Part shown: positions 38,002 through 52,285 of the stretch, piece after piece
Layout of the letters: every line of letters begins with the position of its first letter
How positions within the stretch are numbered: position 1 is the first letter of the stretch
Assembly (NCBI GenBank): GCA_965228735.1
Contig: OZ245838.1
Coordinates: forward strand, 3,680,001-3,744,000
Direction: 5' to 3'
Length of the DNA: 64,000 nt
Source of the DNA: Planctomycetota bacterium
Lineage (GTDB): Bacteria; Planctomycetota; UBA1135; UBA2386
Notes under the pieces: generated by a model
What the model saw: only the letters and a program-made list of their open reading frames with translations
The model's database searches: none
Told to the model about the DNA's origin: nothing
Program-made: the position numbers and the translations under genes

Positions 38002-39894
38002 TCAGCCGCGGCCGCGTTCCGGATCCGCCATGACCTCGGGCGCGATCGCCGCCGCGACCTCGTCGCTGTAGAGGTCGCGCTCCTGCAGCACCGCGGCGAC
38101 CGTGCGACCGGACGCCAGCGCTTCGGCGGCCACGCTCGTCGACACGTCGTAGCCGAGCACCGGCACGAGCGCGGTGACGAGGCCGATGCTGTTCTCGACG
38201 AACTCACGGCAGCGCTCGTCGTTGGCCGTGATCCCGGCGATGCAGTTCTCGCGCAACGTGTGCACCGCGTTGGCGAGGATCTTCAGCGACTCGAAGATGC
38301 TCGCCGCGATCACCGGCTCCATCACGTTGAGCTGCAGCTGGCCGGCCTCGGCCGCGAGCGTGACCGTGAGATCGTTGCCGATGACGCGGTAAGCGACCTG
38401 GTTGACGACCTCCGGGATCACGGGGTTGACCTTGCCCGGCATGATCGAGCTGCCCGGCTGCCGCGGCGGCAGGTTGATCTCACCGAGACCGGCGCGCGGA
38501 CCCGACGACAACAGGCGCAGGTCGTTGCAAACCTTGGACAGCTTGATCGCGAGGCTCTTCAGCGCCGAGCTGAACATCACGAACGCCTGCGTGTCCTGCG
38601 TCGCCTCGATCAAGTCCTTCGCGAGGCCGAGGTCGAGGCCCGTGATCGCGCGCAGGTGCTCGAGCGCCTTCTCGGGATAGCCGCGCGGCGCGTTGAGCCG
38701 GGTGCCGATCGCCGTGCCGCCGATGTTGAGCGTGCGCAGCTTGCCGCGCGCCGACTGCAGTTCTTCCAGCTCCTGCCGCAAGGTGCACGCGAACGCGGCG
38801 AACTCCTGCCCGAGCGTCATCGGCACCGCATCCTGCAGCTGGGTGCGGCCCATCTTGACGACGTCCTTGAACTCGGACGCCTTCAGCTCGCACGTCGCGA
38901 CGAGCCCGTCTACCGACTCGATCAGCCGCTCGCTGCTGAGGATCATCCCGAGCTTGAGCGCGCTCGGATAGACGTCGTTCGTCGACTGCGAGCAGTTGAC
39001 GTGGTTGTTGGGGTGACAGTGTTTGTAGTCGCCCTTCTCGTGCCCGAGGAGCTCGAGCGCGCGGTTGGCGATCACCTCGTTCACGTTCATGTTGGTCGAC
39101 GTGCCCGCACCGCCTTGCAGAACGTCCACGACGAAGTAGTCGTGCAGCTTGTCGGCCGCGATCTCGTCCGCCGCATCCGCGATCGCCTTGGCCCGACGCT
39201 CGTCGAGCACGCCGCAGTCGCGATTGGCCAATGCGCATGCCTTCTTCACCAGCGCGAGAGCGCGCACGAAGTTGGGATAGACGTGCAGGCGCACGCCGCC
39301 GATCTCGAAGTTGCCGAGCGCGCGCATCGTCTGCAGACCGAAGTAGGCCTCCGCCTGCACCTGCCCCTCGCCGAGCAGGTCCTTCTCGGTGCGCGTCCGC
39401 CCGGTCGAGAACCCGTGGGTCACGCCGCTCGTGCGGAACATCAGCTGGTCGTAGCGGCCGACGATCTCGTCGAGCAGGCTCGCGAGCATCCGCTTCTCCA
39501 ACCGGTCGTCGCCCGCGAACACCTCGGCGAGCTTGTCGCGCGTGAGGATCGCCACCTCGGCCGGCGTGATCGCGGTCGCGGTCGTCGAGTGCGTCGAACC
39601 CTCGATCAACATGCCCTCGCCGAGCAGGTCGCCGCGCAGCATCGTCGAAACCGAACGCGCCGTTCCCGTGACATCGAGGCGCGTGAGCGAGATGCGGCCA
39701 CGCAGCACCGCGATGAGCCGGACGCGCGGATCGCCCTCGGCGAACAGCACCTCGCCTTCGGCAAGCGTCTGCGTCTCGACGACCGCGAGCAACCGCTGCA
39801 CCTCTTCCGCCGTCAGGTTGCGGAAGATGTGCGACTGGCTCAGCAGGGCCGCCCAGTCGGAGTCGAAACGGCTCGGTTCTTCGATCGCGCTCAT
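38002..39894 (-). CDS. aspA: Aspartate ammonia-lyase with N-terminal cyclic-nucleotide-binding domain
   Basis: RTEKDLLG, QGGAGTSTNMNVNEV, HPNNHVNCSQSTND, KMGRTQLQDA, GSSIMPGKVNP. The first ~160 aa is a cNMP fold (IFRNL...LFAEGD...LLGE). Confidence 0.92.
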   Translation of the reverse strand: MSAIEEPSRFDSDWAALLSQSHIFRNLTAEEVQRLLAVVETQTLAEGEVLFAEGDPRVRLIAVLRGRISLTRLDVTGTARSVSTMLRGDLLGEGMLIEGSTHSTTATAITPAEVAILTRDKLAEVFAGDDRLEKRMLASLLDEIVGRYDQLMFRTSGVTHGFSTGRTRTEKDLLGEGQVQAEAYFGLQTMRALGNFEIGGVRLHVYPNFVRALALVKKACALANRDCGVLDERRAKAIADAADEIAADKLHDYFVVDVLQGGAGTSTNMNVNEVIANRALELLGHEKGDYKHCHPNNHVNCSQSTNDVYPSALKLGMILSSERLIESVDGLVATCELKASEFKDVVKMGRTQLQDAVPMTLGQEFAAFACTLRQELEELQSARGKLRTLNIGGTAIGTRLNAPRGYPEKALEHLRAITGLDLGLAKDLIEATQDTQAFVMFSSALKSLAIKLSKVCNDLRLLSSGPRAGLGEINLPPRQPGSSIMPGKVNPVIPEVVNQVAYRVIGNDLTVTLAAEAGQLQLNVMEPVIAASIFESLKILANAVHTLRENCIAGITANDERCREFVENSIGLVTALVPVLGYDVSTSVAAEALASGRTVAAVLQERDLYSDEVAAAIAPEVMADPERGRG

Positions 39895-39911: not shown

Positions 39912-41624
39912 CTACTTGCCGCTCCGGGCCTCGCCGCCCAGCTCACGGGCCAGGGCACCCTCGTCGTAGATGTGCTCGAGCGCGGCCGTGATCGCGCCCG
40001 TGTGCACGCTGACCGCGCGATTGACCCGCTCGTCGAACCAGTAGTTGCCCGGCAATGACTCGATGTTGCCGTCGAAGATCAGCCCGACGACCTCGGCATC
40101 GCGATTGAGCACCGGACTGCCGGAGTTGCCGCCGATGATGTCGGCCGAGCAGACGAAGTTGTAGCGCGTCGACAGGTCGAGCTTGTCGCGCTTCTCGAGC
40201 CAGTGCGCGGGCAGGTCGAACGGCTCCTTGCCGCCCATGCCGGCGTGCCGGTTGTAGAGCCCATAGAACGTGGTGAACGGCGCGACCGCCGTCGTGCCGG
40301 CCTCGTAGCCGGTCACCGTGCCGAACGCGAGACGCAACGTGAACGTCGCGTCCGGGTAGTTGTCGGTGCCGTAGGCCGCGAAGCGCGCCCGCGCGATAAC
40401 TCCCTTCGACTCGGCCAGGTCCTTCTCCGTCACGCGCTGGACCGCGGGCATCATCTGCCGCGGGTCGGCGGCGCCGCCGCCGAAGCGCTCGCGCAGCCGG
40501 GCCATCGCCGCGCCGATCTCGGCGAACGCCGCCTTCAGCTGCGGCTCATCCGCCTGCGCCAGCAGGTCCGCGTCGCGCTGCCGGATCCGCTCGAGCATCT
40601 CCGCGTCCCGCAGGCCGTCGAGGTGGCCCGTGTAGGCCTTGAGCGAGTTCATCACGCCGAAGTAGCGGTCGCGCAGCTCGAACGCGGCCTCCGGGTTCTG
40701 CGCCATCGCGTCTTCGAGCTGCGTCCGGATGGTCGTGAGGAACGCAACGATCCGCGGCGCGAGCACATCGCGGTGAAACTCCATCTCCGCGTGCGTGAGC
40801 AGCCGCTCGGTGCCGCCCGGGTGACCGGAAACGAACACCAGGTCGTCGACCTCCGCGCCCTTCTCGTTCCACTCGAAGTAGTGCTCGCTGCTGTCGATCG
40901 GCTCCCCGTTCTCGTAGACGCGGAAGAACGCGCAGTCGAGGCAGTAGCGCGGGTAGGTGAAGTTGTCGAGGTCACCGCCGTAGAACGCGACCTGCTTCTC
41001 CGGCGCGAACACGACGCGCACGTCGTCGTAGACCTTATAGACGTAGACGCGGTACTCCTCACCGTCGTAGAGCGGCACGAGGTCGGCGACGATGTTCTTC
41101 TGCTTGTCGGAGAGCCGATCCGTCAGCGCCTCGGCCCGCACGCGCCACTCGTTGCCGGCCTCGGTCTCGTCCGCGGCCCTCCACTTCTTGATGTCCTCCG
41201 TGACGTCCCTGATCTCGACGAGCTGCCGCAGGGTCAGGTCGGTGCCCTGCGGCTCGCTGCCGAACAATCGCGCACTGAAGCCGTCCTCGACCCAGTCCTT
41301 CTCGGGAGTCGAGATCTTCTGCAGCGTGGTGAGCGCGACGTGATGGTTGGTCATCACGAGCCCGTTCGGCGACACGAACGATCCCGACCCGCCGGTGTCG
41401 AACCGCACCGACGCCATGCGCACCTTGCGCAGCCACGCCGGGGTCGGCTCGAAGCCGTACTTCTCCTTCAACTTCGCGAGCGGCAGCCCGTCGAACGGCC
41501 ACATGCCCTCGTCGAGCACGCGGGTCACTGCTGCGGCGGAGGCCGGCCGGGCCGTGGCGAGCGGGACGGTCGCGCCGATCGCGAGTGCGGCGGCGAGGAC
41601 ACTGGTCAGGAGGAATGGCTGCAT
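39912..41624 (-). CDS. S46-family dipeptidyl peptidase (short form)
   Basis: DEGMW, GSGSFVSPNGLVMTNHH, DNFTYPR..LD..FFRVY, SGHPGGT, YPDATFTLR, DIIGGNSGSP, LIFDGN. Confidence 0.93.
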   Translation of the reverse strand: MQPFLLTSVLAAALAIGATVPLATARPASAAAVTRVLDEGMWPFDGLPLAKLKEKYGFEPTPAWLRKVRMASVRFDTGGSGSFVSPNGLVMTNHHVALTTLQKISTPEKDWVEDGFSARLFGSEPQGTDLTLRQLVEIRDVTEDIKKWRAADETEAGNEWRVRAEALTDRLSDKQKNIVADLVPLYDGEEYRVYVYKVYDDVRVVFAPEKQVAFYGGDLDNFTYPRYCLDCAFFRVYENGEPIDSSEHYFEWNEKGAEVDDLVFVSGHPGGTERLLTHAEMEFHRDVLAPRIVAFLTTIRTQLEDAMAQNPEAAFELRDRYFGVMNSLKAYTGHLDGLRDAEMLERIRQRDADLLAQADEPQLKAAFAEIGAAMARLRERFGGGAADPRQMMPAVQRVTEKDLAESKGVIARARFAAYGTDNYPDATFTLRLAFGTVTGYEAGTTAVAPFTTFYGLYNRHAGMGGKEPFDLPAHWLEKRDKLDLSTRYNFVCSADIIGGNSGSPVLNRDAEVVGLIFDGNIESLPGNYWFDERVNRAVSVHTGAITAALEHIYDEGALARELGGEARSGK

Positions 41625-41703
41625 TGGAAGCGTCAACCCGCGGCGAGACGGGCCCGGGATCTTAGCGTGTGGAACCTGTGCCGCCGCGACCTACCATCGC
41701 TCC

Positions 41704-42942
41704 GTGGAATCTCCCCTGTTGCTCCATCCGACCGAAAGCGGCCCGGAGTCGCTCGCCGAGTACCGCGCGCGCGGCGGCTATGACGGTCTGCAGAAGCTGC
41801 GCGAAGCCTCCGACCCCGCCGCGTTCGTCGAGGAGATCGCCCGCTCGGGCCTGCGCGGGCGCGGTGGCGCGGCATTCCCGACGGCGACCAAGTGGCGCCT
41901 CGCGGCTGCGTCCGAGAGCGCCGAGAAGTTCGTCGTGGCAAACGGCGGCGAGCACGAGCCCGGCAGCAACAAGGACCGCCACCTCGTCGAACACCACGCG
42001 CACGCCGTGCTCGAGGGCCTCGCGATCGCGGGGCTCGCGACCGGCGCGACGAAGGGCTGGCTCTACCTCATCGAGGACATGGCCGGGCCGCGCGCGAGCG
42101 CCGAACGCGCGCTCGCCGAGGCCGACGCAGCGGGCCTGTTGCCGTTCCCCGTCGCGATCCACTGCGGCCCGACGACGTACGTCGCGGGCGAGGAGACGGC
42201 GGCGCTCGCCGCGATCGAGGGCGAACCGGCCAAGCCGCGGAAGAAGCCGCCGTTCCCGGGCGACGCCGGGCTGTTCGGCAAACCGACGACGGTGAACAAC
42301 GTCGAGACGTTCGCGCACGTCGCATGGATCGCGCGGAACAGCGCCGACGCGTTCGCCGCGATCGGCACCGCGGAGAGCAAGGGCACGCTGCTCTTCACGC
42401 TGCCGGACACCGTCAACCGGCCCGGCGTCTACGAACTGCCGTTCGGCGCGACCTATCGCCAGCTGATCGACGAGCACGGCGGCGGCATGCGCGACGACCG
42501 CGAGATCCGCGCGATCCTGCCGGCGATGTCGGCCGGCTTCCTGCATCGGGACCACCTCGATGTCGAGATCGCGTACGAGACGCTGCAGCCGCTCGGCACC
42601 TCGCCCGGCTGCGGCGGCGTGCGGATCGTCGACCAGCACACCGACGTCGTCGCGCTGACGATCGAGATCGCCGAGTTCTTCATGCGGGAGCAATGCGGCC
42701 AGTGCCCGCCGTGCCGCATGGAGACCAACCAGTTCGTGCACATCTTGAAGGCCGTGCAGGCCGGCAAGGGCCCCGGCTACGACGACAAGCTGAAGAAGCT
42801 CGCGGCGTTCACCCGCAAGAAGGGCTTCTGCTCGCTCATCGAGATGGCCGCCGCGCCGGTCATCAGCGCCGTCGAGGTCTTCGCCGCCGAGTTCGCGGCA
42901 GCGGCCGGCCCCGGCGCCCCCACAGGCGGGCAGGGCGGCTGA
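41704..42942 (+). CDS. NuoF/HoxF-like NADH-binding FMN/4Fe-4S subunit (stand-alone)
   Basis: SGLRGRGGAAFPT..KW, NGGEHEPGSNKDR, YVAGEETA, PTTVNNVET, CGQCPPCR...FC. GTG start at 41704. Confidence 0.88.
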   Translation: MESPLLLHPTESGPESLAEYRARGGYDGLQKLREASDPAAFVEEIARSGLRGRGGAAFPTATKWRLAAASESAEKFVVANGGEHEPGSNKDRHLVEHHAHAVLEGLAIAGLATGATKGWLYLIEDMAGPRASAERALAEADAAGLLPFPVAIHCGPTTYVAGEETAALAAIEGEPAKPRKKPPFPGDAGLFGKPTTVNNVETFAHVAWIARNSADAFAAIGTAESKGTLLFTLPDTVNRPGVYELPFGATYRQLIDEHGGGMRDDREIRAILPAMSAGFLHRDHLDVEIAYETLQPLGTSPGCGGVRIVDQHTDVVALTIEIAEFFMREQCGQCPPCRMETNQFVHILKAVQAGKGPGYDDKLKKLAAFTRKKGFCSLIEMAAAPVISAVEVFAAEFAAAAGPGAPTGGQGG

Positions 42943-42943
42943 G

Positions 42944-44101
42944 TTGACGCACCGCTACTACGCCGCGTGCACGCTCGGACTGGAGGAGGTCCTCCGGGAC
43001 GAGCTCCACGACCTCGGCGTCACGGACGTCAAGGTCCGGCGCGGCGCGTGCGAGTTCGAGGGCGACCGGGCGCTCGGCTATCGCGCGTGTCTGTGGCTGC
43101 GATCCGCGATCCGCGTGCAGGAGGAGCTGGCGCGCGGACCGGCGCGCAGCCGCGAGGAGCTCTACGCGCTCGTCTGGACCGTCGATTGGTCGCAGAGCAT
43201 CTCGCCCGAGATGACGCTCGCGATCGACGGCGCCGTGCGCAACAGCCAGTGGGCCAACGACACGCGCTTCCCGGTGCTCGTCACCAAGGACGCGATCTGC
43301 GACCAGTTCCGCAAGCACGACGGCGCGCGGCCGAGCGTCGAACGTGACCGGCCGCACCTGCCGGTCAAGCTCGTGCTCATCGACGACCACGCGATCCTCT
43401 ATCGCGAGCTCGGCGGCGAGCCGCTGCACAAGCGCGGCTACCGCAAGATCCAGCACCGCAGCCCGCTCAACGAGGCGACGGCCGCCGGCCTGCTGCTGCT
43501 GAGTGACTGGGATCGCGAGTCACCGGTCGTCGATCCGTGCTGCGGGTCCGCGACGTTCCTCGTCGAGGCCGCGTGGATCGCGGGCGACCGCGCGCCGGGG
43601 CTCGGTCGCAGCTTCGCGTTCGAACACTGGCGCGACGCCGACCTCGACGCGTGGCGTGAGCTGTTCGACGACGCCGAGGCGCGCGCCGAGGCCGGGGTGG
43701 ACCGCATCCCGCGGCTCGCCGGCAACGACCGCCACCAGGGCGCGCTCGGCATCGCGAAGGCAGCGCTCAACGCGGCCGGGCTCACGCAGCGCGTCAAGCT
43801 CGTGCAGGGCAACGCGCGCGACTTCGAACCCGCGTTCACGCCGTCGGTCGTGGTCGCCAACCCGCCGTACGGCGACCGCCTCGGCGACGACCCCGAGCAA
43901 CTCGAAGAGAGCTGGCGCGCGATCGGTGACTTCCTGCACCGCTCTGCGGCCGACCGCGCGTGGGTGCTCTGCGGCAACCCCGACGTGGCGCGGCTGCTGG
44001 GGCTGCGCAGCGACCGCCGCGTGCCGGTGCGCAACGGCCCGATCGAATGCCGCTGGCTGCGCTACGCGCTCGGCGGCAACCCGGAGTCAGGGGTCAGCTG
44101 A
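42944..44101 (+). CDS. THUMP-domain rRNA guanine-N2 methyltransferase (RlmL-like)
   Basis: GLEEVL..EL, KDAICDQFR, LHKRGYR, PLNEATAAG, DPCCGSATF, NPPYGDRL. Confidence 0.9.
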   Translation: MTHRYYAACTLGLEEVLRDELHDLGVTDVKVRRGACEFEGDRALGYRACLWLRSAIRVQEELARGPARSREELYALVWTVDWSQSISPEMTLAIDGAVRNSQWANDTRFPVLVTKDAICDQFRKHDGARPSVERDRPHLPVKLVLIDDHAILYRELGGEPLHKRGYRKIQHRSPLNEATAAGLLLLSDWDRESPVVDPCCGSATFLVEAAWIAGDRAPGLGRSFAFEHWRDADLDAWRELFDDAEARAEAGVDRIPRLAGNDRHQGALGIAKAALNAAGLTQRVKLVQGNARDFEPAFTPSVVVANPPYGDRLGDDPEQLEESWRAIGDFLHRSAADRAWVLCGNPDVARLLGLRSDRRVPVRNGPIECRWLRYALGGNPESGVS

Positions 44102-44942
44102 CGAGCGCGATCGCGCCCGCGGCCGGGAGCGCCAGCAGCACGAGCGCCACGAACGTCCAGCGCTTGGGTCGCTCCTTCGCGAACGACTTCGGCAGCACGA
44201 GCGGCAGGGCTGGCGTGATCGCAGCCAGCGCCGCGACCGTCCATGGCAGGCTGCCGAGCTCGGCACCGGCGATGAGCACGAGCGCGTGCGCGATGCCGAG
44301 CCAGACGCCGTCGGCCGGCGCGAGCTTGAGCGGCTCGTGCCACATCGCGGTCGCGATCCCGGCGACGACGGTCGCGGCACACGCGCCGATCGTCGCAGCC
44401 TGCCAGTAGCAGTCGGTCAGGTCGAGCACCGCGAAGTCGACCGCGAAGGCCGCGACGAACACGAACGCCATGAGCGGTGAATCCGACGCTCGTTCGATGA
44501 GGCTGCGAGACGCGAACACCGCCCCACCGGTGATCAGGACCGCCGCCCCGACGTGCGGCAGGATCCACGCGAAGCCCTCGCCGCGCGCCGCCTGCCAGAG
44601 CACGAACCAGGCCGACGCGCCGCCGAGGAGCAGGCCGACCCATAGCCCGCCGCGCGGCGGCAGCCAGCGCCAGCGTTCGAACGACGTCACGAGCGTCGCG
44701 AAGATCAGGCACCAGAACAGCCACGGGCGGCCGCTCGGGCGCTGCCACAGCTCGTGCGGCAACCGCGGCCAGTCGTGCAGCAGAACGGCCGCGAGCGCGA
44801 GGCCGATCGCCGCGGCAAGCGCGAGCAACCGCCCCCCGCCGACGCTGACGAGCGCGAGGCCCGCAACGAGCGACGGAGCGAACGTCTTGATCCACGACAG
44901 CCAGTCCACGGCGTGGGATCCTGCGCGATCCGGCGACCGCAA
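44094..44942 (-). CDS. Hypothetical multi-pass membrane protein
   Basis: Highly hydrophobic (~9 segments); abuts the upstream gene. True start may be GTG 44909. Confidence 0.65.
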   Translation of the reverse strand: MRSPDRAGSHAVDWLSWIKTFAPSLVAGLALVSVGGGRLLALAAAIGLALAAVLLHDWPRLPHELWQRPSGRPWLFWCLIFATLVTSFERWRWLPPRGGLWVGLLLGGASAWFVLWQAARGEGFAWILPHVGAAVLITGGAVFASRSLIERASDSPLMAFVFVAAFAVDFAVLDLTDCYWQAATIGACAATVVAGIATAMWHEPLKLAPADGVWLGIAHALVLIAGAELGSLPWTVAALAAITPALPLVLPKSFAKERPKRWTFVALVLLALPAAGAIALVS

Positions 44943-45944
44943 TCAACGCGGCAGCAGCAAGACGACGCCATGCGCCGCGACGAGGTCCGCGAAGCGCTGC
45001 GACAGCTGATAGCGCGAGAAGCGCACCTCGATCGCCGCCCGGAGCTTGCTCGCAGTGTTCCGCCGAACCACCACCGCGCCGGTCGACCCCTGCCCCAGCA
45101 GCGCGCGCAGCTCGTCCTCGTCGAACACCTCGGGCCGGCGGCCGGAGTAGTAGAGCACGCGCGGCAGATCCGACGCGACCGTCTCGTCCGGTGCGAGGCG
45201 TTCCCCCACGAACTCGCCGAGATGGCGCTCGACGATGACGGTCTTCGAGCCGGCGACGCCGCCGTTCCACGCGAGCCAGAACATGGCCGCCACTGCCAGC
45301 GTGAGCAGCAGGTCGCGCAGGCGAACATGCAGTCGGGAGAGACCGATCGCCGCGATCACGGCAACCGCGAGCATGCCGAGCGGCAACAGCCCGGGCAGGC
45401 CGCCGCGCATCGCGTCGAGGACCGCGAGCCCGACGAGAACCGCACCGAGCCCGAACCGCCGCCGGCTCAGCGCAAGGAGACCCAGCCCCGCGAGCAGGAG
45501 CTGCACCGGCGTCGCGGCACCGCCCGCCGTCGAAAGAGCCGGCTGCGGCACGCTGGCCATGAGCAGTGCCACGCTCGTGCCCGCACCGGCGCCCCGGGAC
45601 CGTTGCCAGCGCTGCGCGGCGATCGCCGCGGGCACGATCCCGAGCCCCGTCAACACCGCGCCGAGCACCATCGCGCACTCGAACGGTTCGAAGCCGAGCA
45701 GAACGCCCGGCGTGATCAGCGCGCTCCAGAGCGGCCCGGACCAGACGTGCTGCAACGCCGTGAAGTCACCGCCGCCGAGCTCGCGCGCGACCCACAGGTC
45801 GAGCACGGCATCCTCACCGGGCAGCGGCGCCCGCACCGCGAGCAGCCAGCGCCAACACACGGTCGCGGCAACGACCCACAACAGGATCCGCCGGTCGCGA
45901 TCGTCGAAGAGTGGCTGTTGCTCGGCTGGTTCGACGTTCGTCAT
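44943..45944 (-). CDS. Multi-pass membrane protein, weak GT-C glycosyltransferase resemblance
   Basis: EDAVLDLWVARELGGGDF...GPLWSALI recalls first-loop GT-C motifs. ATG 45944 overlaps the upstream stop (ATGA). Confidence 0.55.
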   Translation of the reverse strand: MTNVEPAEQQPLFDDRDRRILLWVVAATVCWRWLLAVRAPLPGEDAVLDLWVARELGGGDFTALQHVWSGPLWSALITPGVLLGFEPFECAMVLGAVLTGLGIVPAAIAAQRWQRSRGAGAGTSVALLMASVPQPALSTAGGAATPVQLLLAGLGLLALSRRRFGLGAVLVGLAVLDAMRGGLPGLLPLGMLAVAVIAAIGLSRLHVRLRDLLLTLAVAAMFWLAWNGGVAGSKTVIVERHLGEFVGERLAPDETVASDLPRVLYYSGRRPEVFDEDELRALLGQGSTGAVVVRRNTASKLRAAIEVRFSRYQLSQRFADLVAAHGVVLLLPR

Positions 45945-48900
45945 GGCAGCTGGCACCATTGGCCCGGGTCCTCGCCGTCGTCGCCGAAACCGCCGAGGCG
46001 GAACACGATGTCACGGTAGTTGCGCACGTCCAGTACGGCCATCGACTGCACGGCGCGCAACGCGCGGATGTCACGGCGCACGGCCGGCCCCTTGGCATAG
46101 ATCCCGAGCAGGCGCGCAGCCGCGACCTCGGTCGGCGACTGTTCGGGCTCGAGCTCGAGCCAGGCCGAGAGCACGGTGCGGATATCGTGCTCGTTCCGCG
46201 CCCACGCTCGCCGCAGGGGTCGCAGCGCGGTGCGCGGCAGGTCGCGGCCGTGCCGCTGCAGCCAGCGCTCGACCGGGCCCACGCGAAACAGGCCGACGAG
46301 GGCGCGCCACGAGTCGCCGAAAAGGCTTCCGGGCACGCCTTCGCGCACGATTTCGGCCAGGTGCTCGATCCGCCAGCGCTCGGCGTGCAGCAGAGTGCGC
46401 ACGTTGTCGCGATCGGCGATCCACGCGCACGTGACGGCGAGTTCGCCGGCGCGTCGATGGGCCGCGCTGTCGACCGCTGGAAACTCGGGCAGCCACGCGA
46501 TCGCGGCATGCAGCTCGCGGACGTCCCGATGGATCTCGTGCGCACGCTCGCGCAGCTCGACGCACTCGCGTTCGTGCAGATGCAGGAACGCGAGATCGCG
46601 CTCGAAGTCGCTGTCCTCGCGGAAGTCGCTGCGCTCGGTCCAGCCGATCGGTGCGCCCGAGTAGGCCGGGTCGAGCCACAACCGGGTGCGCAACGCCTCG
46701 CGCAGCCCCGGCGCCTTCATGCGATGGATCTTGCGCAGCGCGACGGCGAACGGCGCGATACCGGCCTCGCGGTTCTGCATCGCGACGTGCGGGTCGAGCA
46801 CCTCGCGGACGATCTGGTTGATCCGTCGCACGATCCACGTCACGAAGCGCGCGAAGCGCACCAGCATCAAGAGCGGCGCGAGCAGCACGCGCCCGTGTGA
46901 CATCCGCTTGCGGTAGAAGCGCAGCGGATTGAAGCTGCGCTCGTGCTTCGGCAGGTGGTGCACGGGCCGCGTGCCGAAGATCTCGCGGATCATCGTGCGC
47001 CGGTCGTGCTCGAGCACCTCGAGCACCTCGTCCCCGAAGATGTGCGCGATGTGACCGTCGCGCTCCGGATCACCGCCGACGAAGTCGATCGCGCAGAACT
47101 CGGTCGTCGGATAGGCCTCGGTGCGCACCGTCTCGAGCCCCGCGAGCGTGCGACCGGCCTTCGGATCGCGCCGGCGGTCGAGCCACAGCCCCATCGCCTC
47201 CTGCTGCTCGGGCGAGCTATCGCCGAACTCGGCGAGCGGGATGCAGAAGCGGTTGTAGCCCTCGATGCGCTTCGCGGTCTCGACGGCGATGCTCTCGGTG
47301 ATGAAGCTGAACCACAGGTAGGGCCCGGAGAACACCGTGCCGTCGTCGAGGCGCAGCTTGCGCAGCCGCTTCTTGTCGCGCCGCGTCACGCCGAGGAACT
47401 GCTCGCGCAGATTGACGAGCGCCTTGTTCGCGAGCAGCTGCTCAGTCGTCTTGACGTCGGTGATGTGCAGCGGCGCGCCGTCGAGGAAGTGCAGGTACAG
47501 CATGGCGACGCGGTTGACCCCGAAGCGGATGTGGTCGTCGACGTCGTCGTCGACGGGCACGCCGGCGCGCGCCGATCGCACCTGGTGCTGGAGCAACGGC
47601 AGCGCCTGGGCCTGGATCTCGTCGCCGTCGAACACGCGGCGCGCGAGGAACGGCAGGTCGTCGGCCTCGTAGCGCACCTTCGCGAGCTCGAGCTGCGGCA
47701 GGAAGTGGGCTTCGCTGGTGAGGCGGTACGAGTCGGCGGCCTCGCCAGCGAGGCTCTTGAGCCAGCGTCCGAGGGCGAGGCCGATCAAGCAGACGCTGCC
47801 GAGAACGATCAGTGGGGTCGCGACGATTCTCCCGAGGAAGTCGTTGATGTCTTTCAGGGTGCCCTCGGCCTTGCCGAAGATCAGCTGCAGGAGCAGCGCC
47901 AACCCCCCGAACAGCAACAACCGCACCGCCGGCCGTTGCGTCGCCCGGATCAACGCCGTCGCCACCCGATCGAGAATCTGCGGCCCCGTGACGATCCCGT
48001 GCAGATCCGCGTGGAACAGCAGTCGTCCGTGCCAGCGCTCGAGCCAGTCGGCCACGGCGCGCGCGAACGCGACGACCCGTTCTTCGGGCCCGGGCGGCAA
48101 CGGGTGCACCGCGAAGTTGCGCACGATCGGCAGCCACCGCACGGGCACCGCGGACAGGACCCGCAGCACGCGATCGATCGCGCGGATGTCGGACGGCCGC
48201 AGGTAGCGCGGCACGTCCTGCGGCCGCAGCGACCACAGCACCTCGATCGCGCCCTCGATCGGCACGTCGCGCCGGGACGAGCCGATGCGCAGGCTGCCCG
48301 CGCGAACCGGCCCGAGCATGCTCATCCGCCCGCGCAGCGCCTCGGCGCGCGCGACGATCGCGGCGGCCCGCTGCCGCGGGTCGACGAGACCGAGCAGCTC
48401 GCGCTCGCGTTCGAGCGCCTCGAACAGCACCTCACGCCGGCCGTCGAGGTCGGGCGCGCGGTGTTCGTCACTCGCCGCCGGCACGAACACGAATTCGCGA
48501 TCGAGCAATGTCGAGAAACGCTGCACGAGCCCGTCGAGGCCGCGCACGAGGAACAGGAACAGCCGCAGCGACCGCACGAGCGGCCGCAGGACCTGCACGT
48601 AACGCGCGACCCAGCCGATCCGCAGGATGCGCAGCAGTCGCACGACGACGGAGTTGTCCGCGGCCCCCGGGACGTCGACGGCGGGCAGCAGGAACAGCGC
48701 GGACGGGATCGCCGGCAGCAGGTCGACGAGGACGTGACGCACGAAGAACGAGCTGCGGCGCGGATGCAGCACGAGCTCGAACAGGAACGCGAAGACGAAG
48801 AACAGGCACGCGAGCGCGTCGGTCCACTGCAGCGCGTGCGCGACCGGCTCGGACAGCTCGACGGTGAACTCGATCGTCAGGATCGTGAGCACGACGACGA

Positions 48901-49555
48901 GCAGCGCGAAGTTGAGCGAGTGGAACACGACGACGCCGGGTCGCCCGAGCAGCTTCTCCTGCCGCAGCGCGAGCTCGCGGTCGTCGGCCTGATTGCGCAG
49001 GCGGCGGCCGTAGCCGCGCAGCGTCTTGTCGTCGCAGTGCCGGCCGAGCTCGGCCATCACGTCGCTATTGCATCGCAGCGCCATGATCTGCTGCTCGAGC
49101 GGCGTCTCCTCGACGGCCGCCGTCAGCAGCGCGACGCGTTCGGCCGCCTCCTGCACGAGCTCGGGACCGGCCTCGGCGCACGCGACGCGGTCGCGGATCG
49201 CGACGCTGCACTCGGCGGACAGGCTGTCGAGCCCGAGCCGGATCGCCTCCGCGCGGATGTCCGCGAGGTCGAAGAACGCGGCCGGATGCGTGTCGGCTTC
49301 CGCGACGAGCGCGCGCAGCCGCAGCTCGAGCCAGTCGCGCTCCGCCGCCTCGACCGCTTCGCCGACCTGGGACGAATCGCGTTCGTCCTGCCGCCGGATC
49401 CAGCGCAGCTCGGCCGCCACGAGCTCGTGCGCGAGCGCGTCATCACCCGCGACCCGATCGCGTTCGGCCGCGAGCGCGGCGGCGCGCTCGACCGGCGCGC
49501 CGTGGCCGTCCTGGAGCAGCGTGCGCAGGCGCGCGAGGGGGTCGGGGTGATTCAT
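45941..49555 (-). CDS. Large membrane protein with voltage-sensor-like (S1-S4) domain and unknown cytoplasmic regions
   Basis: S2 DALACLFFVFAFLFE, S3 VDLLPAIP, S4 RLLRILRIGWVARYVQVLRPLVRSLR; 1204 aa; no GYG filter seen. Confidence 0.8.
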   Translation of the reverse strand: MNHPDPLARLRTLLQDGHGAPVERAAALAAERDRVAGDDALAHELVAAELRWIRRQDERDSSQVGEAVEAAERDWLELRLRALVAEADTHPAAFFDLADIRAEAIRLGLDSLSAECSVAIRDRVACAEAGPELVQEAAERVALLTAAVEETPLEQQIMALRCNSDVMAELGRHCDDKTLRGYGRRLRNQADDRELALRQEKLLGRPGVVVFHSLNFALLVVVLTILTIEFTVELSEPVAHALQWTDALACLFFVFAFLFELVLHPRRSSFFVRHVLVDLLPAIPSALFLLPAVDVPGAADNSVVVRLLRILRIGWVARYVQVLRPLVRSLRLFLFLVRGLDGLVQRFSTLLDREFVFVPAASDEHRAPDLDGRREVLFEALERERELLGLVDPRQRAAAIVARAEALRGRMSMLGPVRAGSLRIGSSRRDVPIEGAIEVLWSLRPQDVPRYLRPSDIRAIDRVLRVLSAVPVRWLPIVRNFAVHPLPPGPEERVVAFARAVADWLERWHGRLLFHADLHGIVTGPQILDRVATALIRATQRPAVRLLLFGGLALLLQLIFGKAEGTLKDINDFLGRIVATPLIVLGSVCLIGLALGRWLKSLAGEAADSYRLTSEAHFLPQLELAKVRYEADDLPFLARRVFDGDEIQAQALPLLQHQVRSARAGVPVDDDVDDHIRFGVNRVAMLYLHFLDGAPLHITDVKTTEQLLANKALVNLREQFLGVTRRDKKRLRKLRLDDGTVFSGPYLWFSFITESIAVETAKRIEGYNRFCIPLAEFGDSSPEQQEAMGLWLDRRRDPKAGRTLAGLETVRTEAYPTTEFCAIDFVGGDPERDGHIAHIFGDEVLEVLEHDRRTMIREIFGTRPVHHLPKHERSFNPLRFYRKRMSHGRVLLAPLLMLVRFARFVTWIVRRINQIVREVLDPHVAMQNREAGIAPFAVALRKIHRMKAPGLREALRTRLWLDPAYSGAPIGWTERSDFREDSDFERDLAFLHLHERECVELRERAHEIHRDVRELHAAIAWLPEFPAVDSAAHRRAGELAVTCAWIADRDNVRTLLHAERWRIEHLAEIVREGVPGSLFGDSWRALVGLFRVGPVERWLQRHGRDLPRTALRPLRRAWARNEHDIRTVLSAWLELEPEQSPTEVAAARLLGIYAKGPAVRRDIRALRAVQSMAVLDVRNYRDIVFRLGGFGDDGEDPGQWCQLP

Positions 49556-49644
49556 CGGGAGCGCTCGACCAAGGGCTCCGGGGCACGCTGCCCCACCGGA
49601 CGGCGAAGCGCCCGCTGCGCCGGGTCACGGACCGGCGGATTGAA

Positions 49645-50556
49645 TCACCACGGGCGGTCGTAGTCGACCAGCCCCGACGGTTCTTCGCCGAGATAGTCGA
49701 AGCGGAGCACGCGCAGGACGCCGCGGTTGCTGCCCGTACGCAGGCCGAAGTGGCGAACGAGGCCGGTACGCTCGTCGTAGAGCAGCCACATCGAGCGCAG
49801 CCTGGAGCCGCGCGCTCCGATTTGCCGCCGCGCCTCGAGCCGCACGAGGTCGACGCCGTTCTTGCGTTCGCGGCCGACGACCTCGACCCGGAACTGCTTC
49901 GGCAGCCGCGACAGCAGCGAGTGCACGTCGACATCCACGAGGTCGAGCACGCCGTCGAGCTTCTGCCGCAGCCGACCCTGCTCGCGCAGCGGCAGCACCT
50001 GCCGCAGCTTGCCGTTGCCCGGCAGGATCCAAACCTCGTTGCCGTCGCTGCCGATCCGCAGCGGCACGCGGCGCTCGCCGCCGAACGTGAATCGGCCGTC
50101 GATGCGGAAGCGCGACCCCGGTCGCGTCACGAGCACGAAGTTGTGGTTGGCCTGCAGCTCGCCGCGCGCGACGACGCGCGTCATCACGCGGTAACGCCGA
50201 TCGACGTCGCGCCCGAGCTCGGTCACGATGCGATCGACAGCCGCTTCGGCGGTCGGCAGCTGATCCGGCAACGCGAAGAAGATCACGAACCCGGCGAGCA
50301 GCGCGGCAGCCACGCCGACGATGCCCCAGTGTCGCCGATTGCCGGCAACCTCCGCGGCATCGACGCCGGCCATGATGCGTTCGACGCGGCTCTCGCGCGC
50401 GCCGGCATCCGCCGTGTGCAGCGCCCGCAACAGACCGTGCATGGCGCGCTGCTCCGCGAGCCAGCGCGCGGCCTCCGGCGGCACGTCGGCCGGCGCCGGA
50501 CCGTCCGCGAGCGTGTCGTCGAGCGCCCGCCAATCGTCGTTGACCAGCTCGCTCAT
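49645..50556 (-). CDS. Putative anti-sigma factor (single TM, beta-rich periplasmic domain)
   Basis: TM WGIVGVAAALLAGFVIFFAL; IGSDGNEVW resembles LolA-like folds; ATGA overlap with the ECF gene. Confidence 0.65.
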   Translation of the reverse strand: MSELVNDDWRALDDTLADGPAPADVPPEAARWLAEQRAMHGLLRALHTADAGARESRVERIMAGVDAAEVAGNRRHWGIVGVAAALLAGFVIFFALPDQLPTAEAAVDRIVTELGRDVDRRYRVMTRVVARGELQANHNFVLVTRPGSRFRIDGRFTFGGERRVPLRIGSDGNEVWILPGNGKLRQVLPLREQGRLRQKLDGVLDLVDVDVHSLLSRLPKQFRVEVVGRERKNGVDLVRLEARRQIGARGSRLRSMWLLYDERTGLVRHFGLRTGSNRGVLRVLRFDYLGEEPSGLVDYDRPW

Positions 50557-51095
50557 GGCGCCTCGGCCGGGGTCGGGTCGAGTTTGTTCGACAGACAACG
50601 ATGCAGCGCCGCGCGCGCCCGCTGCAGGTGCTTCTTCACCGCTTCGAGACCGTTGCTCGTGCGCGCCGCGATCTCCTTGCAGTGCAGCCCGTGCTCGTAG
50701 TGCAGACGCACCGACTCGCGCTGCTTGCCGCTGAGCTTGCCGAGGCAGTCACGCAGCGCGTCGAGCCGTTCGTCGAAGTTGTCGCCGGGCGCGCGATCGA
50801 GCGCCGCGAACTCGCCCTCGAGGATCGCCATCACCTCGTCCCCGCAGTAGTGCACCCGGCTGCGGCCGAGCTTGCGGCGGTGGTTGAGCAGCAGCTTGGC
50901 CGCGATGCCGCGCACCCACGGCCCGAACGGCAGCTGTCGGTCGTAGCGGTCGAGGATCTTCCACGCCGTGAGGAACGTCTCCTGCACGAGGTCCTCGACG
51001 GCCACGCCGTCGCGCACGGACGCGAGCAGGAACGCGCGCACCGAGTCGATGTGCTCGCGGGCCAGGATCTCGAAGAGGTCGCGGGAATCCACCAC
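50553..51095 (-). CDS. ECF sigma factor
   Basis: VEDLVQETFLTAW, FGPWVRGIA, LRDCLGKL, HYEHGL..KEIA, VKKHLQRAR. GTG start at 51095 or 51092. Confidence 0.92.
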   Translation of the reverse strand: MVDSRDLFEILAREHIDSVRAFLLASVRDGVAVEDLVQETFLTAWKILDRYDRQLPFGPWVRGIAAKLLLNHRRKLGRSRVHYCGDEVMAILEGEFAALDRAPGDNFDERLDALRDCLGKLSGKQRESVRLHYEHGLHCKEIAARTSNGLEAVKKHLQRARAALHRCLSNKLDPTPAEAP

Positions 51096-51184
51096 GGCAC
51101 CATTGTCGCCGGCCCGCGGCGCGGGGACAGCCAACCGCGGATTTCCGCGCCCCGATTTCGGCGCTATCCGTTGCCGAATCGCCG

Positions 51185-52285
51185 ATGCGGCCGAGGATTC
51201 CGGTGATGCGCGTCGCGGCCTACGTCTACACCGGCTGGCACCCGATCGCGGAGCGCGACGCCGCATTCCACCCCGGGTTCACCGAGTGGGAGCTGGTGCG
51301 CGACTGCCGGCCGCGGTTCGCTGGCCACCGCCAACCGCGGGTGCCGGCACTCGGCGAGTACGACGACCGCGACCCCGTCGCGTTCGGGCAACGGATCGGC
51401 CTCGCCCGCGACCACGGGATCGACGCACTCGTGTTCGGCGTGTTCTGGTGCCGCGGCAAGCGCGTGTTCGAGGCCGGGCTCGACCAGGGCTTTCTCACCG
51501 GCCCGCACCGCGACATGCCCTTTGCCTGCATGTGGGCCAATCGCCTGCCGCGGCGCGTGCTGCCCGTGCGGCGCACCGATGCGGCAGTGATCGGCGACGA
51601 TCGGCGCGTGCCGAGCGACGTCGACGACTTCGTGCAGTTCGTCGCGATGCTCGCGGAGAACTACTTCGTGCGGCCCAACTACCTGACCGTCGAGGGCCGC
51701 AGCTACCTGTCGATCTTCGACTCGACGTTCTTCGCGCAGGAGCTCGGCCACGACCACGCGCGCGCCGCGATCGCGGCTGCGCGCACCTGGCTGCGCGAGC
51801 ACGGCCACCCCGATCTGCATCTCGCGGCGATCGAACCCAACGCCGACGTGTTGCCGATCGTGCGCGACCTCGGCTTCGACAGCGTGACGCATTACGTCTT
51901 CCTGCCCGATTGGAAGGGGCCGTTCGAGCAGGACTACACGGAGTACGCGCGGCTGCGGGCGGGCCAGTGGCAGGGCCAGGCCGATCGTTCCGGATTGCCG
52001 TATATGCCTGCCGTGACAACGGGTTGGGACGCCTCGCCGCGCGGCGCCGACTTCGGCCCGGCGCGCCCCGACAAATATCCGTGGGCGCCGGTCGTAACGG
52101 GGGAGCATCCCGAGTCGTTCGGGGCCGCCTTGGAGCGTGCGATCGCGTTCCGATCGCCGGTGGGAGTCGAGGACCCGCTCGTGCTCGTCGCGTCACTCAA
52201 CGAGTGGAGCGAAGGGCACTACCTCGAACCCGACGAGCGGTTCGGGACCGGCTGGCTCGAGGCCGTCCGAGCGGCGCGACGTTGA
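51185..52285 (+). CDS. GH99-like / WbsX-family glycoside hydrolase or glycosyltransferase-associated protein
   Basis: AAYVYTGWH, FTEWELV, P.LGEYD, LARDHGID, FACMWAN, GWDASPR, SLNEWSEGHYLEPD. Start may be 51206. Confidence 0.85.
   Translation: MRPRIPVMRVAAYVYTGWHPIAERDAAFHPGFTEWELVRDCRPRFAGHRQPRVPALGEYDDRDPVAFGQRIGLARDHGIDALVFGVFWCRGKRVFEAGLDQGFLTGPHRDMPFACMWANRLPRRVLPVRRTDAAVIGDDRRVPSDVDDFVQFVAMLAENYFVRPNYLTVEGRSYLSIFDSTFFAQELGHDHARAAIAAARTWLREHGHPDLHLAAIEPNADVLPIVRDLGFDSVTHYVFLPDWKGPFEQDYTEYARLRAGQWQGQADRSGLPYMPAVTTGWDASPRGADFGPARPDKYPWAPVVTGEHPESFGAALERAIAFRSPVGVEDPLVLVASLNEWSEGHYLEPDERFGTGWLEAVRAARR

Follow-up and report, generated by a model that had tools for sequence, protein, structure and literature searches.

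A stretch of 64,000 nucleotides from a Planctomycetota bacterium (GenBank assembly GCA_965228735.1, contig OZ245838.1, positions 3,680,001 to 3,744,000 of the forward strand), referred to below as the window, carries on its minus strand a gene for a large membrane protein with a voltage-sensor fold. The evidence assembled here supports an S1-S4 sensor module that keeps its S4 arginines and stands without a pore. The open reading frame and its translation, listed in a first-pass annotation made from the letters alone, held when rechecked, and the 7.3 kb around the gene were recovered as one contig per run, with zero differences, in 4 of 4 public runs, which may include the source of the genome itself. 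Window positions of the gene, of the segments of its product and of the flanking genes are collected in Table 1.

An AlphaFold2 model of residues 1-1200, built from 119 sequences, has a predicted local distance difference test score (pLDDT) of 83.6 and a predicted template-modelling score (pTM) of 0.73. Together with hydropathy it reproduces the layout that the annotation had proposed around the sensor: a helical N-terminal stretch, a soluble linker of ~200 residues, a hairpin at 543-599 and a C-terminal part of ~600 residues. The N-terminus, residues 345-542 and residues 600-1204 are predicted from hydropathy and the positive-inside bias to be cytoplasmic. The N-terminal region is highly variable, its length before G204 ranging from 92 to 443 residues in relatives, and a single column among the first 190 is 80%-conserved. 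Conservation in the linker is poor ahead of the two motifs near its end.

Table 1. Features of the voltage-sensor-domain gene, its product and the adjacent genes (window coordinates)
Feature	Position	Strand	Remarks
Membrane protein gene, ~282 amino acids, no known family	44094..44942	-	start uncertain
Membrane protein gene, 333 amino acids	44943..45944	-	ATGA overlap with sensor gene; weak hint of a putative glycosyltransferase
Voltage-sensor-domain membrane protein gene	45941..49555	-	1204 amino acids; single copy in the 7.2 Mb genome
Residues 1-200, variable helical N-terminal region	48956..49555	-	from model and alignment
Residues 205-340, S1-S4 voltage-sensor fold	48536..48943	-	D246, C250, F253, D278, R306/R309/R312/R318/R324; H212 and A256 replace acids of relatives
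Residues 325-346, arginine-rich helix extending S4	48518..48583	-	P325, R328, invariant R331, R338, D341; putative coupling role
Residues 345-542, cytoplasmic helical linker	47930..48523	-	motifs D517-x-x-G-x-x-T-G-P-Q and R541-P-A-x-R545
Residues 543-599, two-helix membrane hairpin	47759..47929	-	short variable loop; lacks a pore helix and a filter motif
Residues 606-1196, compact all-helical domain, unrecognised fold	45968..47740	-	model pLDDT 88.7, pTM 0.87
Residues ~742-862, helix-short helix-helix unit	46970..47332	-	polar; weak superposition on channel S5-P-S6 (Z 2.7-4.8)
Residues 887-912, hydrophobic or amphipathic helix around invariant P894	46820..46897	-	from hydropathy
Putative anti-sigma factor gene	49645..50556	-	named by position; likely start overlaps stop of the extracytoplasmic function (ECF) sigma factor gene
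ECF sigma factor gene	50553..51266	-	passes the TIGR02989 cut-off; translation probably starts downstream of the open reading frame start

An S1-S4 module without a conventional pore

The four-helix voltage-sensor-like domain that had been proposed for residues ~205-340 is confirmed by structural superposition and by two kinds of profile comparison. When the full model was compared by VIA with 48,161 PDB representatives, the best match was Kv4.2 (Z 9.4, root-mean-square deviation (rmsd) 5.1, 124 residues aligned), and Kv4.3 (Z 9.1), Ci-VSP (Z 9.1), Kv2.1 (Z 9.0) and KvAP (Z 8.9) followed, all within residues 186-341; the alignments to Kv4.2, Kv4.3, Ci-VSP and KvAP span 121-128 residues. A hairpin of CHMP1B also reached Z 9.0, on residues 525-621, and represents a generic coiled hairpin. 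A profile of 46 near relatives matches S2-S4 of Kv4.2 at E 8.7e-5 and ends there, and hhalign scored residues 195-345 at 96.9% against K-type and 94.5% against Nav-type bacterial channel profiles (11 and 15 references, respectively). The Pfam Ion_trans match of the query itself (residues 211-330, model positions 4-122 of 241, E 0.01) lies under the cut-off and is weak alone; 6 of 12 further homologues scanned pass it. Foldseek of the full model against PDB returned nothing at E 0.001 or better, and NCBIfam, PADLOC (0/5 proteins) and PHROGs (the S1-S4 region only) named nothing outside the sensor. The ESM Atlas held no usable match for residues 345-1204, and one relative gave only Ion_trans clusters under 0.9.

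The helices themselves can be placed with some precision. S1 comprises residues 210-234 and S2 residues 243-263, and S3 contains D278-LLPAIP. S2 reads D246-x3-C250-x-F252-F253-x3-F257-x2-E260; all residues of the signature that the annotation had written as D..C.FF...F..E are present, but three residues rather than two separate the aspartate from the cysteine. The S2 phenylalanine, a glutamate one turn below it and the S3 aspartate make up the charge-transfer centre, as described in PMC13661669. Here F253 and D278 are kept; the glutamate that had been counted is real, but it lies at F253+7 (E260), one turn on from the canonical F253+3 position, which is occupied by Ala256. The S4 series runs R306, R309, R312, (W315), R318, (Q321), R324, followed by R328, R331 and R338.

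Conservation was read from a wide alignment of 132 rows, consisting of the query and 131 of the 150 listed representatives of at least 1100 residues (24-60% identity, about 30%), and from a near-relative set of 119 sequences. Across the wide alignment D246 is present in 100% of rows, C250 in 97%, F or L at 253 in 100%, an acid at 256 in 131/132, K or R at 260 in 129/132 and an acid at 278 in 91%; R331 is invariant and D341 is kept in 98%. With the S4 register taken as an ungapped count back from D341, basic residues occupy positions 306, 309, 312, 315, 318, 321 and 324 in 60-81% of the rows. Runs of at least six (R/K)xx repeats occur in 63/131 S4 segments, as against 1/2010 downstream windows of the same proteins, and register runs of 7-8 in 50/131 members; only 1-2 repeats are found in 20/131, and S3-S4 is shortened in some distant members. 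In the near relatives R306 and R309 are present in 119/119 and R312 in 118/119, with Trp at 315 and Gln at 321. Non-conserved S4 arginines in homologues had been named in advance as grounds for abandoning the sensor interpretation; they are conserved. Judged by its residues, the sensor of the family is a textbook one and the copy in the query is somewhat altered. Positions 256 and 260 covary, D or E at the first going with K or R at the second in distant members and D with E in most near ones.

That neither S5-P-S6 nor a TVGYG filter follows S4, as the annotation had noted, is borne out by profile, motif and structural comparisons. Model positions of Ion_trans beyond 128 of 241 were matched by 0/12 homologues, and seven segments downstream of the sensor scored 0.03-1.14% against the K-type and Nav-type profiles in hhalign. 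Filter motifs, searched for anywhere in the 132 sequences, are not conserved: T[VILT]G[YF]G occurs in 1, G[YF]GD in 4 and T[LM][ED]xW in 3. Among 50 structural rows, the Kv, Nav and Cav chains align only to residue 320, the exceptions being three rows with an rmsd of 13-24 Å. A search for a pore fold elsewhere in the chain found residues ~742-950 to match pore domains weakly (Z at most 4.8), with helices that are polar. A cryptic conventional pore in a predicted structure had been named as a further possible refutation, and this did not come about.

The membrane part that does follow the linker is a hairpin. Its hydrophobic helices, 543-565 and 574-599, have a median best-19 Kyte-Doolittle (KD) hydropathy of 2.03 and 2.44, and G550, G586, C589, G596 and W598 are conserved in it. 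The loop between them has a median of 17 residues, no conserved sequence and insertions of up to about 70 residues. Helix 887-912 is a third and weaker hydrophobic helix (median KD 1.63); since it surrounds invariant P894 and precedes a basic stretch, it is read as possibly lying at the membrane surface or being re-entrant.

The C-terminal domain, the family and its gene neighbourhood

Residues 606-1196, modelled separately from 104 sequences, form a single all-helical unit. Foldseek of this model gave nothing at E 0.001 in PDB or among viral models, and a profile of residues 345-1195 had 0 matches to PDB sequences at E up to 10. Its conservation matches that of the sensor: 80%-conserved columns make up 14-19% of its segments and 13% of the sensor. 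Between 91 and 100% of sequences share D700, W748, N768, D851, R852, R857, R873, N876, R941, K942, R945, R958, D962, D987, R1167 and D1176, and P894 is invariant in the wide alignment. The excess of invariant Arg, Lys and Asp among these suggests a site for a phosphate-bearing ligand. A mutual-information analysis (387 rows, effective number of sequences about 213) was dominated by phylogeny and was not used.

Sensor and C-terminal domain travel together. The 131 representatives of the wide alignment had been found by the C-terminal profile alone (345-1195, with the sensor left out), and 131/131 align over S2, all with D246. A search for shorter forms yielded 10 proteins, of which the six examined are apparent fragments or frameshifted pieces, and no stand-alone effector domain was shown by it. 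Several short relatives (P0341-P0349), seemingly of one subgroup and one of them labelled Isosphaeraceae, look frameshifted or fragmentary.

With an E limit of 0.001 the same profile finds 614 cluster representatives, and with one of 1e-30 it finds 334; the databases label members "ion transporter" or "hypothetical protein". Named matches are nearly all from Planctomycetota, including records of Candidatus Brocadiia and Isosphaeraceae; one relative is labelled Myxococcales, and a few records carry another taxon or none. This restriction rests on the source names of the matches, the systematic genome counts having been made within Planctomycetota. There the family profile matches 74/401 genomes (70 strongly, four only at E 1e-5 to 1e-6). 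The family is present in 73/201 genomes of the class, in 45/49 of the window's own taxonomic family and in 0/28 of a second family from the same order. A tree of 39 sequences shows 8 of 10 multi-member families as monophyletic (seven with support of at least 0.9, one with 0.0) and two as not. Tree and distribution together fit mostly vertical inheritance with losses.

The annotation had also proposed that the sensor gene is translationally coupled to two membrane-protein genes, lies downstream of an ECF/anti-sigma pair and may form an undescribed system with them. The first overlap is real (ATGA, with the downstream start at 45944); at the second junction the genes just abut (TGA/TTG), and the start there is uncertain. 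The pair of regulatory genes ends 89 bases upstream of the sensor gene; its ECF member passes TIGR02989, whereas the "anti-sigma" member has no family match and owes its name to position. The 333-residue neighbour may be a membrane glycosyltransferase, NF047440 having matched 2/22 members of its family (best E 0.003). A YceI-type gene separates the two downstream membrane genes in no fewer than three of the relatives that were inspected. No sigma-70 promoter and no minus-strand terminator were found within 43900-51400.

The system itself did not survive comparison. Among near-relative loci with enough flank (53 or 58, according to the gene), the ECF gene is found in 42/53, the anti-sigma gene in 41/53 and the membrane genes in 32/58 and 22/58. 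Unrelated genes are also syntenic in this clade (wbsX-type 33/53, proS 13/53, rlmL 22/58, nuoF 19/58), and when 13 window neighbours were tested in 25 distant loci, 0/25 shared any. Because the neighbours are absent from distant loci and unrelated genes are syntenic too, the apparent system is gene order inherited within one clade.

Several other genes of the region merit a brief record. The WbsX-type glycosyltransferase-family gene at 51185-52285 (+) is divergent from the ECF gene; it has 74-82% identity across 33 near loci, and across such loci it is more conserved than the sensor protein. At 41347-42942 (+) a NuoF-like flavoprotein (TIGR01959 below cut-off) is encoded beside an rlmL-type methyltransferase and, within the region covered, not among other nuo genes. 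The product of 38002-39894 (-) belongs to the fumarase/aspartase family of lyases (Lyase_1, FumaraseC_C) and has an N-terminal cyclic-nucleotide-binding domain (E 1.4e-14), an arrangement that suggests an aspartate ammonia-lyase regulated by cyclic nucleotide monophosphates. An NYN-domain gene is found a few kb or less from the family gene in 7/25 distant loci of two lineages, on differing sides and possibly by chance (L073:4277-5056, L075, L077, L112:5942-7006, L119, L124, L125).

Candidate readings of the protein

The reading that we favor, and to which we give an even chance, is that of a stand-alone voltage transducer of the inner membrane with no ion pore involved; that voltage is sensed, and that an effector is driven by it, are steps that we infer. 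The S1-S4 sensor, and S4 in particular, would move with the membrane potential, and the arginine-rich helix at 325-346, through R331, R338 and D341, would pass this movement to the cytoplasmic helices. Held near the membrane by the hairpin, the C-terminal domain would be switched there at its conserved charged site. This domain probably has an anionic, phosphate-bearing ligand that it binds or acts on, its invariant Arg, Lys and Asp residues constituting a candidate ligand or catalytic site, and the logic would be as in the voltage-sensing phosphatase (VSP) or SLC9C1. A more specific form of the proposal, in which an S4 sensor of the channel type would act on a 600-residue domain with a new fold, making the protein a bacterial voltage-controlled enzyme or switch, the first voltage-coupled one from bacteria, is more tentative and falls somewhat short of an even chance.

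Several observations weigh against the transducer. The query and its four closest matches (5/119 near relatives) carry Ala256 (window 48788-48790) in place of the S2 charge-transfer acid, H212 (window 48920-48922) replaces a conserved acid in the query alone, and the S4 of the query has only three uninterrupted arginines in register; E260, one turn lower, may compensate for A256. As to an output, none of eight catalytic-motif patterns of known enzymes is conserved (at most 21/132), and VIA on the C-terminal model reached at best Z 5.4, with no match that names one, although at 591 residues the model is over the size where single-domain matches of VIA weaken, and this null does not prove a new fold.

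The absence of the charge-transfer acid, together with W315 and Q321 within the S4 of the near clade, would also suit an S1-S4 module that has lost its response to voltage and acts instead as an anchor in the membrane or as a detector of lipid, ligand, pH or tension, in the manner of TRP channels, with the C-terminal domain as a scaffold; the shortened S3-S4 of some distant members and the 20/131 with few S4 repeats point the same way. Repurposed S1-S4 domains of TRP channels are described in PMC13661669. According to the same review, however, TRP channels lack what this family keeps, namely F/L253, D/E256, D/E278 and long S4 runs, and we consider a repurposed module improbable. A non-canonical voltage-gated channel or transporter, in which several 543-599 hairpins, possibly with helix 887-912, line a P-loop-free pathway that is gated by S1-S4 via the cytoplasmic domain, is unlikely without being far-fetched. 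The protein has six membrane helices, like the subunit of a six-transmembrane-helix (6TM) channel, and small residues are conserved in the hairpin, which is strongly hydrophobic; yet about 200 residues separate it from S4, its loop is unconserved and in some members greatly enlarged, it scores at most 0.4% against S5/S6 profiles, and structural comparison paired it with generic coiled hairpins.

A pore might instead be sought deeper in the chain, if S5-P-S6 were the ancestor of residues ~742-862 (or of a stretch reaching ~946) and a 6TM channel, with large insertions, that of the whole protein. All three of the 50 VIA rows confined to residues 137-347 of the C-terminal model (query 742-952) are indeed channel pores: CatSper 9ubw_C (Z 4.8, rmsd 3.4, 88 aligned), Slo2.2 5a6g_B (Z 4.4, rmsd 3.4, 90/94) and CatSper 7eeb_C (Z 4.3). 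Chains of Cav3.2, TRPC3/5, TPC1, Nav1.5, Slo1 and TRPM2/7 fall on the same region at Z 2.7-3.9. These values lie within the stated background of the tool, however, and the TRPC4/5 pore fits model residues 1-96 as well (Z 2.8-2.9). The S5-like and S6-like helices have a median KD of 0.71 and -0.24 with two and seven charges (seven in 19 residues), whereas genuine S5 and S6 have 2.1-2.6 and no charges; hhalign gives at most 0.3%; and the position of the unit relative to S1-S4 in the full model is not that seen in a channel. In their present form residues ~742-862 cannot serve as a membrane pore, they are unlikely to descend from one, and a relict 6TM channel is the least credible of these accounts. 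A detached sensor subunit gating a separately encoded pore or transporter, or a single system with the adjacent ECF/anti-sigma and membrane genes, is quite improbable. The genome does hold four other pore-bearing channel genes elsewhere, some without a full sensor, and in near relatives the ECF gene upstream and the first membrane gene downstream are frequent companions; against this stand the empty distant loci and the synteny of unrelated genes described above, and the neighbours that distant loci have in common included no conspicuous channel gene.

Provided that the sensor works, the family would show how a bacterium might monitor its membrane potential with no flow of ions, and a new effector fold would join the few voltage-coupled proteins known that are not channels. 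Several hundred natural S4 variants, including copies without the charge-transfer acid, would then be at hand for work on sensor mechanics or for voltage reporters. Should the enzyme or switch proposal be true, it would link membrane potential directly to biochemistry inside the cell and define a new class of voltage-coupled effector, in a Planctomycetota family that is widespread and mostly vertically inherited.

Relation to known voltage sensors

The closest structural relatives of the module are the voltage-sensor domains of Kv channels (Kv4.2 7e7z, Kv4.3 7w3y, Kv2.1 9o10, KvAP 1ors; the S1-S4 half of PF00520), with which it shares the fold, the S2 phenylalanine and acids, the S3 aspartate and arginines at every third position of S4. 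In those channels S5-P-S6 and the filter come after S4, whereas here ~860 further and unrelated helical residues follow, a two-helix hairpin among them. The same contrast applies to 6TM channels in general (Kv, BacNav), where the S5-P-loop-S6 unit directly after S4 and the filter (TxGYG, TLExW) have no counterpart in this protein. Hv1 and TMEM266 also have an S1-S4 module that no pore domain follows. In Hv1 the sensor is itself the conducting path, and according to a 2023 review (PMC10377628) Hv1 is not known from prokaryotes; of the features given there, its mid-S1 aspartate is found in 0/132 and RxWRxxR in 1/132 of the present sequences.

In SLC9C1, too, the sensor is not attached to a pore, and its long S4 is embedded in intracellular helices, according to PMC13095418. 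Its exchanger of 13 helices and its cyclic-nucleotide-binding domain set it apart, since here two, or at most three, hydrophobic helices lie outside S1-S4 and no such Pfam match was obtained. The phosphatase Ci-VSP (4g7v) resembles the protein in that a large cytoplasmic domain comes after an S1-S4 that has no pore (125 residues of its voltage-sensor domain aligned, rmsd 5.1). It is unlike the present protein, which is bacterial, is modelled as all-helical in its downstream domain and has an extra membrane hairpin; the CX5R signature of VSP appears as HCx5R in 5/132 and as CxxGxxR in 3/132, and no PTEN-like Pfam match was found. By the features tested the protein is thus not a member of the Kv/Nav, Hv1, VSP or SLC9C1 groups, and no title or abstract describing its family was found in the literature, subscription journals not being covered. 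The 2023 review states from database searches that a K+, Na+ or Ca2+ pore goes with every S1-S4 domain of prokaryotes, and that pore-less sensors derive from a split in early eukaryotes. Judged by sequence and predicted structure, the present family is a counter-example to the rule that all prokaryotic sensors have a pore.

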